From Novosphingobium sp. (GTDB lineage Bacteria > Pseudomonadota > Alphaproteobacteria > Sphingomonadales > Sphingomonadaceae): a DNA stretch of 64,000 bases. The first letter of the stretch is position 1, and each line of letters opens with the position of its first letter. The position numbers were made by a program, and so were the translations under genes. Positions 3,559 to 64,000 of this stretch are shown one piece after another. The notes beneath the pieces are model-generated. The model worked only from the letters and a program-made list of their open reading frames with translations. It did not search any database and was not told where the DNA came from. The stretch spans positions 846 to 64,845 of the forward strand of contig JBOHIC010000053.1 in assembly GCA_050725835.1 (NCBI GenBank). The letters run 5' to 3'.

Positions 3559-5054
3559 GCGAATACCGCATCCAAGGCGCCACCGGCGAATGGGAGGTCG
3601 TGATCGGCCTTGAGGTCCACGCGCAAGTCACTTCCAACGCCAAGCTGTTCTCGGGCGCGGCGGCGGCGTTCGGGGCGGAGCCGAACTCGCAGGTGAGCCT
3701 GGTCGATGCGGCGATGCCGGGGATGCTGCCGGTGCCCAATCGGGAGTGCATCCGCCAGGCGGTGCGCACCGGGATGGCGATCGAGGCCTCGATCAACCAG
3801 TGGAGCCGGTTCGACCGCAAGAACTACTTCTACGCCGACCTGCCGCAGGGCTACCAGATCAGCCAGCTCTACCATCCGCTGGTGGGCGAGGGGGCGATCG
3901 AGGTTTCGCCCGACGACAAGAACCCCGATCAGGTCAAGACCATCGGGATCGAGCGAATCCACGTCGAGCAGGATGCGGGCAAGCTGATGCACGATCAGCA
4001 CCCGACGATGTCCTACGTCGATCTCAACCGCTCGGGCGTGGCGCTGATGGAAATCGTCAGTCGTCCCGACATGCGTTCGCCCGCCGAAGCAGGAGCTTAC
4101 CTGCGCAAGCTCAGGTCGATCCTGCGCTATGTCGGCTCGTGCGACGGCAACATGGAGGAAGGCTCGATGCGCGCCGACGTCAACGTCAGCGTGCGCAAGC
4201 CCGGCGGCGATCTCGGCACCCGGACCGAGACCAAGAACGTCAACTCGGTGCGTTTCGTCATGGCGGTGGTCGAGAGCGAGGCGCGCCGCCAGGTCGATCT
4301 GATCGAGGACGGCGGCAGCGTGGTCCAGGAAACCCGGCTCTACGATCCGGGGCGGGGCGAGACCCGCTCGATGCGCAGCAAGGAAGACGCGCACGATTAC
4401 CGCTACTTCCCCGATCCCGACCTGCTGCCGCTCGAGCTCGACGAGGCCTTTCTCGCCGAATGCCGCGCCAGCCTGCCCGAGCTGCCCGACGCCAAGCGCC
4501 GCCGCTACGAGGCCGAGCTCGGCCTTTCGCCCTACAACGCCGGGGTGCTCACCGCCGAGGTCGAGACCGCGCGCTGGTTCGAAGCGCTGCTCGCCGCCAC
4601 CGCCGCCAAGTCCGGCAAGGGCGAGGGCGAGGTCGCCAAGCAGGCCGCCAACTGGCTCCTCTCGGAACTGTTCGGCGCGCTCAATAAGCTTGGCAAAGGG
4701 TTGGAGGATTCGCCCGTAACGCCCGAAGGCGGCGCGGAACTTCTCGGCCTGATCGCGACCGGGACGATCTCGGGCAGCATCGCCAAGCAGGTTCTCGAAA
4801 AGATGCTCGAGAGCGGCGAGGGCGCGGGTGTCATCGTCGCGCGCGAGGGGCTGACCCAGACCAGCGACACCGGCGCGATCGACACCGCCGTGGCCGAAGT
4901 GCTGGCCGCCAACGCCGACAAGGTCGAGCAGTACAAGGCGGGCAAGGACGCATTGTTCGGGTTCTTCGTCGGGCAGACAATGAAGGCGATGGCGGGCAAG
5001 GCCAACCCGCAGCTGGTCAATCAGGTGCTTCGCGGCAAGCTTGCTGAAACGTAG
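3555..5054 (+). CDS. gatB: Asp/Glu-tRNA amidotransferase subunit B
   Basis: [55 protein letters not shown] start overlapping the gatA TGA. Confidence 0.97.
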
Positions 5055-59006: not shown

Positions 59007-61838
59007 TCAGGCTTTCTTCCTGCGGCGAATTTCGGAGCGGACCGAGAGGCCCAGCGCGTTGCCGATCAGCGCGCCCTGTTCGGCCTCGTGGCGCTTGGCG
59101 AGCCCGGTGGCGGGCGAGGCGCTGGCGACGCGGCCGGCAAAGCGCGCGCGCGCCACCCCACAACGTTCTGGGCACCTGGCTTCGCCCAGCGCCTGCTCGA
59201 TCTCGGGCTCGACAAAGAACCACGCGCCGTTGTTCTTGGGCTCTTCCTGGCACCAGACCACGTCTTCGAGCTTGGGCATCTTGGCCAGCCGCGCGGCGAG
59301 CGGTTCGCCGGGGAAGGGGTAGAGCTGCTCGATCCGGATAATCTGGGTGCCTTCGACTTCGGCGGCGTCGCGCGCTTCCATCAGGTCGAGCGCGACCTTG
59401 CCCGAGCACAGCACCACCCGCTTGGTATCTTCATCGGCCGCGCCGTTCTTGTCCGAGAGGATGCGCTTGAAGTGCGCCTCGCCGACGAACTCGCTCGCTT
59501 CGCTCCGCGCCAGCGGATGGCGCAGCAACGACTTGGGGGTCATGATCACCAGCGGCTTGCGGAACGGACGGTGCATCTGGCGGCGCAGCACGTGGAAATA
59601 GTTGGCCGGGCTGGTGATGTTGCAGACCTGGATATTGTCCTGGGCGCAAAGCTGGAGGAACCGCTCGAGGCGTGCCGAGCTATGCTCGGGCCCCTGGCCC
59701 TCGTAGCCGTGCGGGAGCAGCAGGACGAGGCCGTTGGCACGCAGCCATTTTGCCTCGGAAGCGGCGATGTACTGGTCGATGATAATCTGCGCGCCGTTGG
59801 CGAAATCGCCGAACTGGGCGTCCCACAGCACGAGGCTCTTGGGATCGGCGCTGGCGTAGCCGTATTCGAAGCCGAGCACGCCGTATTCGCTCAAGGGGCT
59901 GTCGTGGACCTCGAAGCGCCCGTGCGGCAACGTGCCGAGGGGGATGTATTTGTGCTCGTCGGTCTGGTCGACCCACACCGCGTGGCGCTGGCTGAAGGTG
60001 CCCCGGCCCGAATCCTGGCCCGAAAGGCGCACCCCGTAGCCTTCGGAGAGCAGCGCGCCGAAGGCCAGCGCCTCGCCGGTCGCCCAGTCGAACCCGGCCC
60101 CGCTGGCGAACATCTCGCGCTTGGCGTCGAGCACCCGGGCTAGGGTCTTGTGGATCGTCACGCTGCCGGGAACCGTGGTTAGCGTGCGGCCGAGGCTGTC
60201 GAACAGTTTCTGCTCGATCCCGGTATGGATATTGCGCCGCGCGGTTTCGGGATCGGCGGGGGCGTGGAGGCCGCTCCAGCGCCCGGCGAACCAGTCGGCC
60301 TCGTTGGACTTGTAGCTTTTGGACGCCTCGAACTCCTGCTCGAGCGTCTGGGTGAAGCGCATCGCGGTTTCGGAGGCGTAATCCTTGTCGATCACCCCCT
60401 GTTCGACCAGCCGGCCGGCATAGATTGCGCTGACCGCGGGGTGCTGCTTGATCCGGGCATACATCAGCGGCTGGGTGAAGCTGGGCTCGTCGCCCTCGTT
60501 GTGGCCGAAGCGGCGGTAGCACCACATGTCGACCACGATGTCGCGGCCAAAGGTCTGGCGATAGTCGATCGCCAGCTTGCAGGCGAAAGTCACCGCCTCT
60601 GGATCGTCGCCGTTGACGTGGAGGATCGGCGCCTGGACCCCCTTGGCGACGTCCGAGGGGTAAGGCGAGCCGCGCGAAAACTGCGGGCTGGTGGTGAAGC
60701 CGATCTGGTTGTTGATGACGAAGTGGATGCACCCGCCGGTGTTGTAACCGCGCACGCCCGAGAAGCCGAAACACTCCCAGACGATGCCCTGCCCGGCGAA
60801 GGCCGCGTCGCCGTGGATCAGCACCGGCAGCACGGTCTTGTGCTTGTCTTTGCCGATATCGTCGCGGAACACCTGCTGCGCGCGCGCCTTGCCGAGCACG
60901 ATCGGGTCCACCGTCTCGAGGTGCGAAGGATTGGGGACCAGGCTCATGTGCACCGAAATCCCGTCGAACTCGCGGTCGGTGCTGGTGCCGAGGTGATATT
61001 TGACGTCGCCCGAACCGCCGACGTCCTCGGGGTTGGCGGTGCCGCCGGAGAACTCGTGGAAAATTACGCGGTAGGGCTTGGCCAGCACGTTGGCGAGCAC
61101 GTTGAGCCGGCCGCGGTGGGCCATCCCGTAAACGATCTCCTTGACCCCGCGGACCCCGCCGTACTTGATCACCGCCTCGAGCGCGGGGATCATCGCCTCG
61201 CCCCCGTCGAGCCCGAAGCGCTTGGTCCCGACATATTTGCGCCCAAGGAACTTCTCGTACTGCTCGCCGCGGATCACCGCGCCGAGGATCGCCTGCTTGC
61301 CTTCGGGGGTGAAGTCGATCGCCTTGTCGCCGCCTTCGATCCGGTCCTGGATGAAGCGCCGCTCCTCGACGTCGGCAATGTGCATGTATTCGAAGCCGAC
61401 CTTGCCGCAGTAATTGCGCTTGAGGATCTCGACCAGCTCGCGGATCGTGGTCCACTGGAGGCCGAACACCCCGCCGAGGAAGACCTTGCGATCGAGCGCG
61501 GCGCCGGTGAAGCCGTGATATTCGGGCGAGATGTCGGCTGGCAGCTCCTGCTTGGCGAGGCCGAGCGGATCGAGATCGGCGGCAAGGTGCCCGCGCACGC
61601 GGTAAGTGCGGATCAGCAGCATCGCGCGGATCGAATCCGCCGCGGCTTCCTCGACCGCCTTGGCGTCGAGCGGCGCGCCGCCCTTGGCCGCGGCGGCCTT
61701 GATCGCGCTGCGGATCGTGGTCGGATCGAGCGCCTGGGTGAGGTCGTCCTCGGCCGCGCCCAGCCGCCAGTTGGGCCGCGCCCAGCTCGGCCCGGGCTGC
61801 GGGTCGTCGGGGAGGAAGTCGCTGGTCTCGTAGCCCAT
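59007..61838 (-). CDS. sucA: 2-oxoglutarate dehydrogenase E1
   Basis: [47 protein letters not shown]; start at MGYETS (61838). Confidence 0.97.
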
Positions 61839-61854
61839 AACTCGGTTCCAATCC

Positions 61855-61969
61855 CCCCTCCCCGGTGGGGAGGGGTAGTGAGACTTGGCAGCGTGCTGCC
61901 TAGTCGCAGCGGGGTGGGTTCCGCGCTTGCATCGAACCCCCACCCCAACCCCTCCCCACCGGGGAGGGG
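61855..61969. repeat. Inverted REP-like doublet, CCCCTCCCC family, with an extra hairpin in one arm
   Basis: CCCCTCCCC-GGT-GGGGAGGGG...GGGGTGGG versus CCCACCCC-AA-CCCCTCCCC-ACC-GGGGAGGGG. Confidence 0.85.
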
Positions 61970-61979
61970 CCTATTCTGT

Positions 61980-62876
61980 TCACGCCAGCTCTTTGAGCAT
62001 CTCCGCCAGCGTCTCGCCGAGCAGACTGGGCGAGGGGCTGACGCGGATGCCGGCGGCTTCCATCGCCGCGATCTTGCTGTCGGCGTCGCCCTTGCCGCCC
62101 GAGACGATCGCCCCGGCGTGGCCCATGCGCCGTCCGGGAGGCGCGGTCTTGCCGGCGATGAAGCCCGCGACCGGCTTGCGCCGCCCGCGTTTGGCCTCGT
62201 CGATCAGGAACTGCGCGGCCTGCTCCTCGGCGTCGCCGCCGATCTCGCCGATCATGATGATCGATTTGGTTTCGTCATCCGCCAGGAACAGCTCGAGCAC
62301 GTCGATGAAATTGGTGCCGTTGACCGGATCGCCGCCGATCCCCACCGCGGTGGTCTGGCCGAGCCCGGCATTGGTGGTCTGGAACACCGCCTCATAGGTC
62401 AGCGTGCCCGACCGGCTGACCACGCCGACGCTGCCCTTGGAGAAGATGTTGCCGGGCATGATCCCGATCTTGCACTCGTTCGGGGTGAGCACGCCGGGGC
62501 AATTCGGCCCGATCAGACGCGACTTCGATCCAGACAGCGCGCGCTTGACCCGGACCATGTCGAGCACCGGGATGCCCTCGGTGATGCAGACGATCAGCGG
62601 CACCTCCGCGTCGATCGCCTCGAGAATCGAATCCGCGGCGAATGGCGGGGGGACGTAGATGCAGCTCGCGGTGGCACCGGTGGCGGCGACGGCTTCGGCG
62701 ACGGTATCCCAGATCGGCAGGCTGGTTTCGGCGTGGGTGGTCCCGCCTTTGCCCGGCGTCACCCCGCCGACCATCTGCGTGCCATAGGCCAGCGCCTGCT
62801 CGGTGTGAAACGTGCCGGTCGCGCCGGTCATCCCCTGGGTGATGACCTTGGTGTTCTTGTCGACGAGGATGCTCAT
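61980..62876 (-). CDS. sucD: Succinyl-CoA ligase alpha subunit
   Basis: [37 protein letters not shown]. Confidence 0.97.
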
Positions 62877-62890
62877 ATCTCAACCAACTC

Positions 62891-62991
62891 CGTCATCCCG
62901 GCGAAGGCCGGGACCCAGCCCCAAACAATTGACGCCGCTTCGCGTCGAATTTTCCATCTTCGGTCTGGACCCCGGCCTGCTCCGGGGTGAC
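62891..62991. repeat. CGTC-tagged REP doublet, left
   Basis: CGTCATCCCGGCGAAGGCCGGGACCCAG - 46-nt spacer - CTGGACCCCGGCCTGCTCCGGGGTGAC. Confidence 0.9.
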
Positions 62992-62999
62992 AACCGGAT

Positions 63000-63293
63000 C
63001 TATCCGAACAATCCTTCGTAGAGATCTTCCCAATTCGGGTTCATCTCTTCGATCACTCGCAGCTTCCAAAGCCGCTTCCATTCCTTCATCTGCTTCTCGC
63101 GCTTGATGGCGCCTTCGATGTCGTCATGCCGTCCGTACCAGACCAGCATCTTGCAGCCATACTTGGCGGTGAAGCCACCAAATGTGCCGTCTTTGTGTTG
63201 CCAAACGCGTCCGGGCAAATCGCTGGTAACACCAATGTAGAGTGTGCCGTTGCGGCCACTAGCCATCATTTACACATATCCGCCCTTTTCCAC
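63000..63293 (-). pseudogene. GIY-YIG nuclease (UPF0213/COG2827-like) with in-frame TAA at codon 8
   Basis: GAGGAG SD, then GTG GAA AAG GGC GGA TAT GTG TAA ATG ATG GCT = MEKGGYV*MMASGRNGTLYIGVTSDL...HK...FTAKY...AIKREKQMKEWKRLWK..IE.MNPNWEDL. The ORF track reports only the part after the stop (63000-63269). Confidence 0.8.
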
Positions 63294-63307
63294 TCCATCT
63301 CCTCGCT

Positions 63308-63408
63308 CGTCACCCCGGCGAAGGCCGGGGCCCAGCCCCAATCAGACGACGCCGCTTCGCGTCGATTGTATTCGCTCGGTCTGGGTCCCGGCCTTCGCCG
63401 GGATGACG
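63308..63408. repeat. CGTC-tagged REP doublet, right
   Basis: CGTCACCCCGGCGAAGGCCGGGGCCCAG - 45-nt spacer - CTGGGTCCCGGCCTTCGCCGGGATGACG. Confidence 0.9.
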
Positions 63409-63421
63409 GAGCTTGTTTCGG

Positions 63422-64000
<579 letters not shown>

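Follow-up and report, generated by a model that had tools for sequence, protein, structure and literature searches.

A probable, decayed Ssn-type GIY-YIG gene bracketed by CGTC-tagged hairpin dimers between mdh and sucD of Novosphingobium

The mdh-sucD gap and its published counterparts

The DNA analysed here, called the window, is a 64,000-nucleotide stretch of a Novosphingobium sp. genome (GenBank assembly GCA_050725835.1, contig JBOHIC010000053.1). It includes the mdh and sucD genes, which are separated by 545 nt. This gap is taken up by one unit, made of a GIY-YIG reading frame and two flanking dimers of palindromic repeats (Table 1). Since only 5 nt remain between the unit and the sucD start (62876), and 4 nt between the unit and the mdh stop (63422), the gap is filled. 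A preliminary description, made from the letters of the window, had reported this arrangement, with repeat doublets bracketing the gene, and the unit at 62882-63417 bears it out. We refer to the frame as ssn, after the family to which we assign it.

The translation of ssn, from 63293 to 63000 on the minus strand, starts VEKGGYV*MMASGRNGTLYIGVTSDL... and aligns with the homologue N-termini MEKGGWVY and MEKRGYVY. Note that the asterisk marks an in-frame TAA. The open reading frame beyond it, of 89 codons, matches the Pfam GIY-YIG domain (PF01541, E=6e-10) and contains no other domain. When the frame is read through, its AF2 model is a compact GIY-YIG fold (pLDDT 94.5). Foldseek comparison of this model gave UPF0213 protein BH0048, Slx1 and the UvrC N-terminal domain as the nearest solved folds (E 7e-4 to 7e-2, TM ~0.55). 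Of known families, UPF0213/COG2827 (BH0048, EF2693 and E. coli YhbQ) and the Slx1 nuclease domain are nearest by solved fold. The fold similarity to BH0048 has E=7e-4, the corresponding phmmer match is marginal (E=0.25), and the window protein is related to UPF0213/COG2827 at the superfamily level only. Slx1 additionally has a RING/PHD domain and works with a partner protein. To our knowledge, neither UPF0213/COG2827 nor Slx1 has been reported as repeat-flanked. No solved Ssn structure was found by sequence search or fold search. NCBIfam gave no informative match for the protein, and neither PADLOC (defence) nor PHROGs (phage) gave matches for the locus. The base composition of ssn differs from that of its neighbours. 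Its GC content is 0.53 and its GC3 is 0.67, versus 0.67-0.68 and 0.90-0.91 in sucD, mdh and sucA; the AT-richer codons mentioned in the preliminary description are thus confirmed.

In each ~100-bp dimer, a CGTC-tagged palindrome, CGTCAYCCCGGCGAAGGCCGGGRCCCAG, is present twice, in inverted orientation. This consensus, first written down in the preliminary description, is exact in three of the four units. It does not hold for the fourth (62960-62991), which has 3 mismatches and reads TGTC instead of CGTC. The two dimers are direct copies of each other, being 90% identical in the first 58 nt and 84% identical in the last 32 nt. At the outer ends of the unit, complementarity runs 9 nt past the CGTC tags. 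The window has 5 copies of the core palindrome where chance would give 0.52, and 5 was reached in 0 of 100 shuffles. Folded as single-stranded DNA, the dimer 5' of ssn has an energy of -45 to -47 kcal/mol (z -7.8 to -8.6 versus shuffled controls); for the dimer on the 3' side, z is -3.8 to -4.2. We also considered that the dimers might be a known RNA family, and set this aside since Rfam gave sub-threshold miRNA-hairpin noise alone.

The 2.67-Mb assembly has just 10 units, arranged as 5 head-to-head dimers, all intergenic. Two of the five flank ssn. The flanking sequence places the other three within or beside core operons (nuo genes; downstream of an aldolase-like gene). Mini-hairpins analogous to that in the spacer at 63348-63363 are also found in the dimers of contigs C118 and C210. 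Separately, the sucD-sucA gap (window 61836-61979) holds a second, unrelated palindromic dimer with no CGTC tag, CCCCTCCCCGGTGGGGAGGGG ... CCCCTCCCCACCGGGGAGGGG. This is presumably another REP family in the same operon.

Table 1. Features in and around the mdh-sucD gap, and the other dimers of the genome (window positions unless a contig is named)
Feature	Position	Strand	Remarks
Whole unit	62882..63417	.	outermost arms 62882-62921 / 63378-63417, 93% complementary over 40 nt
ssn-type GIY-YIG frame, 97 codons	63000..63293	-	GTG at 63293 preceded by GAGGAG; TAA at codon 8
TAA nonsense codon (codon 8)	63270..63272	-	at first Tyr of GIY motif, inside strand beta1; ATG ATG directly after
89-aa ORF	63000..63269	-	starts at ATG abutting TAA
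Head-to-head dimer of CGTC-tagged palindromes	63308..63408	.	5' of gene; SRM units 63378-63408 and 63308-63338, inverted pair 90% complementary
Head-to-head dimer	62891..62991	.	3' of gene; unit 62891-62921 intact, unit 62960-62991 degenerate
Small central hairpin GACGC-CGCTTC-GCGTC in dimer spacer	63348..63363	.	identical sequence at 62931-62946 in other dimer
sucD (succinyl-CoA ligase alpha subunit)	61980..62876	-	same-strand downstream neighbour of ssn
mdh (malate dehydrogenase), 3' part	63422..64000	-	same-strand upstream neighbour of ssn
Other three dimers of genome	C112 13791-13923; C118 3478-3580; C210 533-632	.	intergenic, small central hairpin in each spacer

Both parts of the unit have published counterparts. 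Ssn proteins are ~100-aa, single-domain GIY-YIG enzymes that act as site-specific single-strand DNA endonucleases (Chenal et al. 2025, Nat Commun 16:2388, PMC11893778). In Neisseria, a repeat called NTS, CGTCATTCCCGCGMAVGCGGGAATCYRG, lies on either side of ssnA, which encodes a small GIY-YIG protein (SsnA of N. meningitidis); NTS was generalised to Ssn-related motifs (SRM) by a degenerate search pattern (PMC11893778). In that work, an SRM was found near 71% of homologues, and on both sides of 42%. Assayed in vitro, four homologues cut single-stranded DNA only and in one orientation only, with the cut falling a few nt to the 5' side of each enzyme's own motif (PMC11893778). Binding was to the protein's own hairpin, solely as single-stranded DNA in one orientation, and required the CGTC head; mutants of the motif Tyr kept binding and lost cutting (PMC11893778). 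The same authors equate the family with CDD cd10448 (GIY-YIG_unchar_3), list Sphingomonas among SRM-rich genera, and liken the NTS-ssnA-NTS architecture to insertion sequences and RAYT/REP systems (PMC11893778). The repeats have an older description. In CGTC REPs, which are mostly alphaproteobacterial, a GC-rich stem lies between a CGTC head and a CCAG-type tail (Di Nocera, De Gregorio & Rocco, BMC Genomics 2013, PMC3733652). Mostly, they form head-to-head dimers with spacers of 20-100 bp, some containing small stem-loops, and they 'apparently lack a dedicated transposase' (PMC3733652), which was the starting point of the preliminary description. We conclude that the GIY-YIG enzyme identified in 2025 is the partner of the CGTC REPs of Di Nocera et al. 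2013. The proposal that the locus represents a distinct new system does not stand, the Ssn family with its SRM/NTS hairpins being already in Chenal et al. 2025 (PMC11893778).

The published SRM pattern, HGTCWYN(0-2)YYVSBRHN(0-5)WNVSBRGN(0-2)RNCYNB, matches the window at 62891-62918, on the 3' side of ssn, and at 63308-63335 and 63381-63408, on the 5' side. Hence, three of the four units match exactly. The sequence AAGGTCATCACCCAGGGGATGACC in sucD itself, considered as an SRM, does not match. An Ssn locus is defined by at least one SRM within 500 bp on both sides of the gene, and by a single-domain GIY-YIG protein of <150 aa. At the window locus there are SRMs within 500 bp on both sides, and the single-domain GIY-YIG frame has 97 codons. 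The definition further asks for homology to N. meningitidis SsnA (blastp E<1e-10) with cd10448 as the top CDD hit, and for an intact catalytic motif (two motif Tyr residues, Arg, the metal-binding Glu and Asn). The window copy, in which the first of these Tyr residues is lost, is a pseudogenised member.

Insertions beside sucD and possible movement of the cassette

Homologues were drawn from two sources. The first comprised 61 related genomes, including that of the window, in which a reversed-pattern control gave 0 matches. Copy number of ssn in these genomes is 0-10, several copies have stop codons, and identity to copies in the other genomes reaches at most 61%. The second was a scan of 185,579 species genomes, which gave 597 confirmed relatives, from which 80 loci were kept. 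The retained loci come from Pseudomonadota, Planctomycetota, Chloroflexota, candidate-phyla-radiation lineages and others. Because even the closest ssn orthologue is only 77% identical at the protein level, synonymous sites between the two are probably saturated.

Within the genus, 29 loci were compared and the mdh-sucD gap was readable in 23. It varies from 33 to 1086 bp and is empty, or has a single REP dimer (CGTC-type in L132), or has unrelated small ORFs. In none of the 23 readable gaps did we find ssn. In these same-genus loci (L112-L139), sucC is not between mdh and sucD, and the contents of the hypervariable gap differ by species, being REP dimers or small ORFs for secreted or membrane proteins. 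We found sucC between mdh and sucD in only one locus (gap 1216 bp), which belongs to another family of the order. The order mdh-ssn-sucD, with the same hairpin type, is present in nine other Sphingomonadales genomes: Sphingopyxis, Sphingomonas, Sphingobium, Altererythrobacter, Parasphingorhabdus and one unclassified alphaproteobacterial assembly. The preliminary description had suggested looking for empty, single-dimer and filled alleles. All exist, the first two in the same genus and the last in the window and other Sphingomonadales.

If the arrangement had been inherited vertically, ssn and its host should share a history. For nine syntenic loci (the window and eight others), pairwise ssn identity and SucD identity have r=-0.27. 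Given this, and the lack of ssn in the same-genus gaps examined, simple vertical inheritance of mdh-ssn-sucD is unsupported. In every mdh-ssn-sucD locus, the GC3 of ssn is below that of sucD. The low GC3, and the disagreement with host SucD relationships, suggest that the cassette reached a hot spot by horizontal exchange and not by long vertical descent.

Across the homologues, sucD is the most frequent neighbour of ssn (~13 of 110 loci). In three betaproteobacterial loci (L057, L078 and L089), Ssn cassettes with NTS-like hairpins are between sucC and sucD. Each of the three proteins comes from a different clade, so the cassettes inserted beside sucD independently. Two further loci, L020 and L150, have the cassette between sucD and sucA. 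A further pattern concerns three Sphingomonadales loci, where a 27-43-nt duplicate of the 5' coding end of sucD lies immediately left of the left hairpin (L031 ~4835-4862, L033 ~4855-4881, L034 ~4812-4854). In L033, the duplicate is identical at 27 of 27 nt. The duplicate follows an extra small membrane-protein ORF, and an intact sucD, with a new ribosome-binding site, comes after the right hairpin. This looks as if a cassette had inserted into the sucD start and duplicated a long target, or as if a circle carrying sucD homology had integrated.

Taken further, such loci could mean that Ssn cassettes are autonomous mobile units and more than genes associated with repeats. They would insert repeatedly at sucD, next to its 5' end or within it, as well as in other core-operon gaps, possibly via a circular intermediate. 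The betaproteobacterial cassettes from three clades, the sucD duplicates in three Sphingomonadales loci, and the disagreement between cassette and SucD are circumstantial reasons for entertaining this. We consider it unlikely. If it were true, prokaryotes would have a new kind of transposition or homing, built around a hydrolytic GIY-YIG single-strand nuclease. Other neighbourhoods also recur. In L040, L065, L068, L079 and L080, ssn is beside or between ORFs that resemble hsdM and hsdS, of type I restriction-modification, by sequence motifs only. The five ssn proteins fall in two clades, with four in one.

State of the ssn copy in the window

In 58 aligned full-length homologues, Y8 is invariant; the window frame has TAA at this codon. 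In the AF2 model, strand beta1 comprises residues 5-11, and Y8 is in mid-strand. Orthologues read GT[ACT] TAC ATC at the site, and the window has TAA, then ATG where orthologues have ATC. Hence, one base change (TAC-to-TAA) made the stop. There is a second departure. At a position where 97% of 149 homologues have Glu, the window frame has Gly (residue 46 of the 89-aa ORF, in beta3). Otherwise, 30 of 31 conserved positions are intact in the window frame. In the catalytic motif, TAA takes the place of the first Tyr, but the frame keeps the second Tyr, Arg, His, Glu58 and Asn77.

Given the TAA, which is known from a 309-contig assembly, and the Glu-to-Gly change, the window copy is probably dead. 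We say only 'probably' because the abutment of TAA and ATG could permit reinitiation. A lone nonsense change, and the replacement of Glu46 by Gly, amid otherwise intact conservation, fit recent inactivation. In-frame stops occur in 6 of 150 homologues and, across surveys, in ~4-10% of family members.

Stop-start reinitiation of the 89-aa ORF, at the ATG abutting TAA, is conceivable. The product would be without beta1 and the first Tyr of the motif. Such a protein might be nuclease-dead and still bind hairpins, and might have been kept to regulate or protect SRM sites. The GAGGAG Shine-Dalgarno sequence and the 7-codon leader ahead of TAA ATG are suitable for this, the conserved columns are well kept, and Tyr mutants of SsnA still bind single-stranded DNA (PMC11893778). 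However, most of beta1 would be lost from a three-stranded sheet, which, judging by the model, should destabilise the fold, and Gly replaces a strongly conserved Glu in beta3. Furthermore, a very recent nonsense mutation accounts equally well for the good conservation, and other family members are pseudogenised too. We regard a retained binding protein as improbable.

Similarly improbable is that the gene is intact, and that TAA arose in assembly or base calling or, the assembly being of metagenome type, is a minority allele. In favour of this, the assembly is fragmented, at 309 contigs, and the remainder of the gene is well conserved. Yet the adjoining codon differs too (ATG versus ATC in orthologues), a second conserved site is changed, and in-frame stops are common in the family. 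Recent inactivation is therefore the reading we retain.

If ssn is dead, the five remaining dimers, in the TCA operon, the nuo operon and elsewhere, would be orphan hairpins. Orphan repeats and dead genes are normal for Ssn/SRM, because members bearing stops recur and repeats with no ssn occur. In one related genome (G007), there are 22 CGTC units of a window-like type, GTCATCCCGGCGCAGGCCGGGATCG, and no ssn homologue at E<=1e-5; this is an orphan repeat family. In the genus, the window-type motif is scarce, with mostly 0-26 units per genome, and one genome with 81, mainly of a related stem type.

The probably inactive copy bears on the mechanism put forward in the preliminary description, in which nicks in REP hairpins or cruciforms would spread repeats and gene by way of recombinational repair. 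On this view, an active, RAYT-like 'REPtron' would now mobilise CGTC dimers, and itself, by nicking extruded hairpins. The parallel has substance. Like RAYT/REPIN systems and IS200/IS605 TnpA, the window has a small gene between inverted hairpins that are also scattered as gene-less dimers; in Ssn as in those systems, the enzyme recognises single-stranded DNA hairpins, and enzyme and repeat co-evolve. Unlike RAYT/REPIN, the window protein is GIY-YIG rather than HUH and the tag is CGTC rather than GTAG, so it is no RAYT. RAYT and IS200/IS605 enzymes are HUH Y1 tyrosine enzymes with a covalent intermediate; a GIY-YIG nuclease is hydrolytic and has an unrelated fold. We know of no strand-transfer activity for Ssn. 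Hence, the Ssn system may work like RAYT, without being a RAYT member.

Active mobilisation could explain the inverted-hairpin bracket, which shares the geometry of RAYT/REP and IS200/IS605 elements. It also suits the near-identical proteins in distant phyla (for instance L072 and L092, or L040 and L006), the patchy copy number of 0-10 per genome, and the empty, dimer-only and filled alleles at one site. Against this, the gene is broken at the Tyr of the catalytic motif, and there are just 5 dimers in the genome. Moreover, G007 keeps its 22 units without any ssn match. For Ssn, hydrolytic cleavage of single-stranded DNA alone has been shown (PMC11893778), and transposition or joining is known for none. 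Active mobilisation by the window's nuclease is very improbable, and we keep to a recently inactivated Ssn copy.

Pairing of nuclease and hairpin across the family

The bracket was tested de novo, with no prior motif. We searched for inverted repeats between the 200 bp upstream and the 200 bp downstream of each gene, requiring a score of at least 14, with shifted positions in the same loci as controls. Such a repeat was found in 89 of 104 loci (86%), compared to 1 of 598 control positions (0.2%). The published motif behaves accordingly. Over 109 homologous loci, there are 3.25 SRMs per kb up to 200 bp from the gene and 0.054 per kb beyond 500 bp, a 60-fold difference. An upstream SRM(+) together with a downstream SRM(-) occurs in 40 of the 109 loci, and this 37% is near the 42% of Chenal et al. 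2025.

The position of the hairpins is regular. The head is nearly always (C)GTC, usually ~55-95 nt before the matched start and in plus orientation. The inverted copy is 0-60 nt 3' of the gene, often overlapping the last codons. In L002, L013, L044 and L056, where the 3' hairpin overlaps the gene end, protein tails like ...GFPLSRE* are encoded by an NTS-type repeat in reverse complement, and the stop codon sits in the TGAC(G) tag. The commonest architecture is a single SRM(+), the gene and a single SRM(-). The dimer-gene-dimer architecture of the window recurs in L040, L052, L077 and L087, from distant lineages. Hence, it is a recurrent variant and no oddity of the window locus.

Hairpin and protein also vary together. 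Protein distance and hairpin distance are correlated (Mantel r=0.46, reached in 0 of 999 permutations). Hairpin types coincide with clades of the protein tree, and hairpin sequences differ by locus and clade (ATTCCCGCGAAAGCGGGAAT, ACCCTGAACTTGTTTCAGGGT, GCCCCGTGCTTGACACGGGGC, ACCCCGGGCTTGACCCGGGGT). Among paralogues in the same genome, only 1 of 25 pairs shares a hairpin. The preliminary description had proposed that a GIY-YIG family partners CGTC-type REPs, and that REP sequence should co-vary with nuclease phylogeny. Both are upheld, the first by the bracket and the second by the Mantel test. We conclude that the gene-repeat pairing is specific, and co-evolving, across ~150 loci. Coincidence, with ordinary intergenic REPs (terminators or mRNA stabilisers) accumulating in operon gaps independently of the gene, might be read into the dimers without a nuclease gene, in nuo-operon gaps and elsewhere, but such chance adjacency is ruled out by the 60-fold SRM enrichment and the bracket, and refuted also by hairpin-protein co-variation, so its probability is next to nil.

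These patterns allow the window to be placed. Like Ssn loci, it has a ~100-aa single-domain GIY-YIG gene between inverted CGTC-headed hairpins that match the SRM pattern, in a family whose hairpin type co-varies with the protein and whose distribution, across phyla, is patchy and multi-copy. The window protein is 53-61% identical to proteins of L002, L013, L015 and L089, which are flanked by exact NTS-type hairpins, ATTCCCGCGAAAGCGGGAAT. The architecture, the published motif pattern and this identity argue for Ssn membership. Three things distinguish the window from described Ssn loci. In its copy, the first motif Tyr has become a stop codon and a conserved Glu has become Gly; each flank has a full head-to-head dimer with a structured spacer, not a single motif; and the host genome has just 10 units, not hundreds. 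Note that the window's clade is alphaproteobacterial and known from sequence alone, while the biochemistry is of other Ssn members. The repeats themselves are CGTC REPs in the sense of Di Nocera et al. 2013, who describe 20-40-bp palindromes with a terminal CGTC tag, being CGTC-tagged, multi-copy, extragenic palindromes in head-to-head dimers. Unlike CGTC REPs as described in 2013, they flank a GIY-YIG gene. Very probably, therefore, the window holds an Ssn member with its cognate SRMs (CGTC REPs as head-to-head dimers), in a cassette that may have been acquired horizontally and whose nuclease copy was probably inactivated recently.

The locus is a decayed example of a published kind, and adds little that is new. 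What is added is a documented case of decay, in which the motif Tyr has become a stop codon while the genome retains orphan dimers, a recurrent dimer-gene-dimer variant, and hints of horizontal cassette movement into a hot spot next to sucD. There is also independent statistical confirmation, de novo and across ~150 loci, of the gene-hairpin bracket and its co-variation. The link between GIY-YIG enzymes and CGTC REPs, published in 2025, was re-derived independently from raw sequence. Hence, the gene-repeat pattern is robust.
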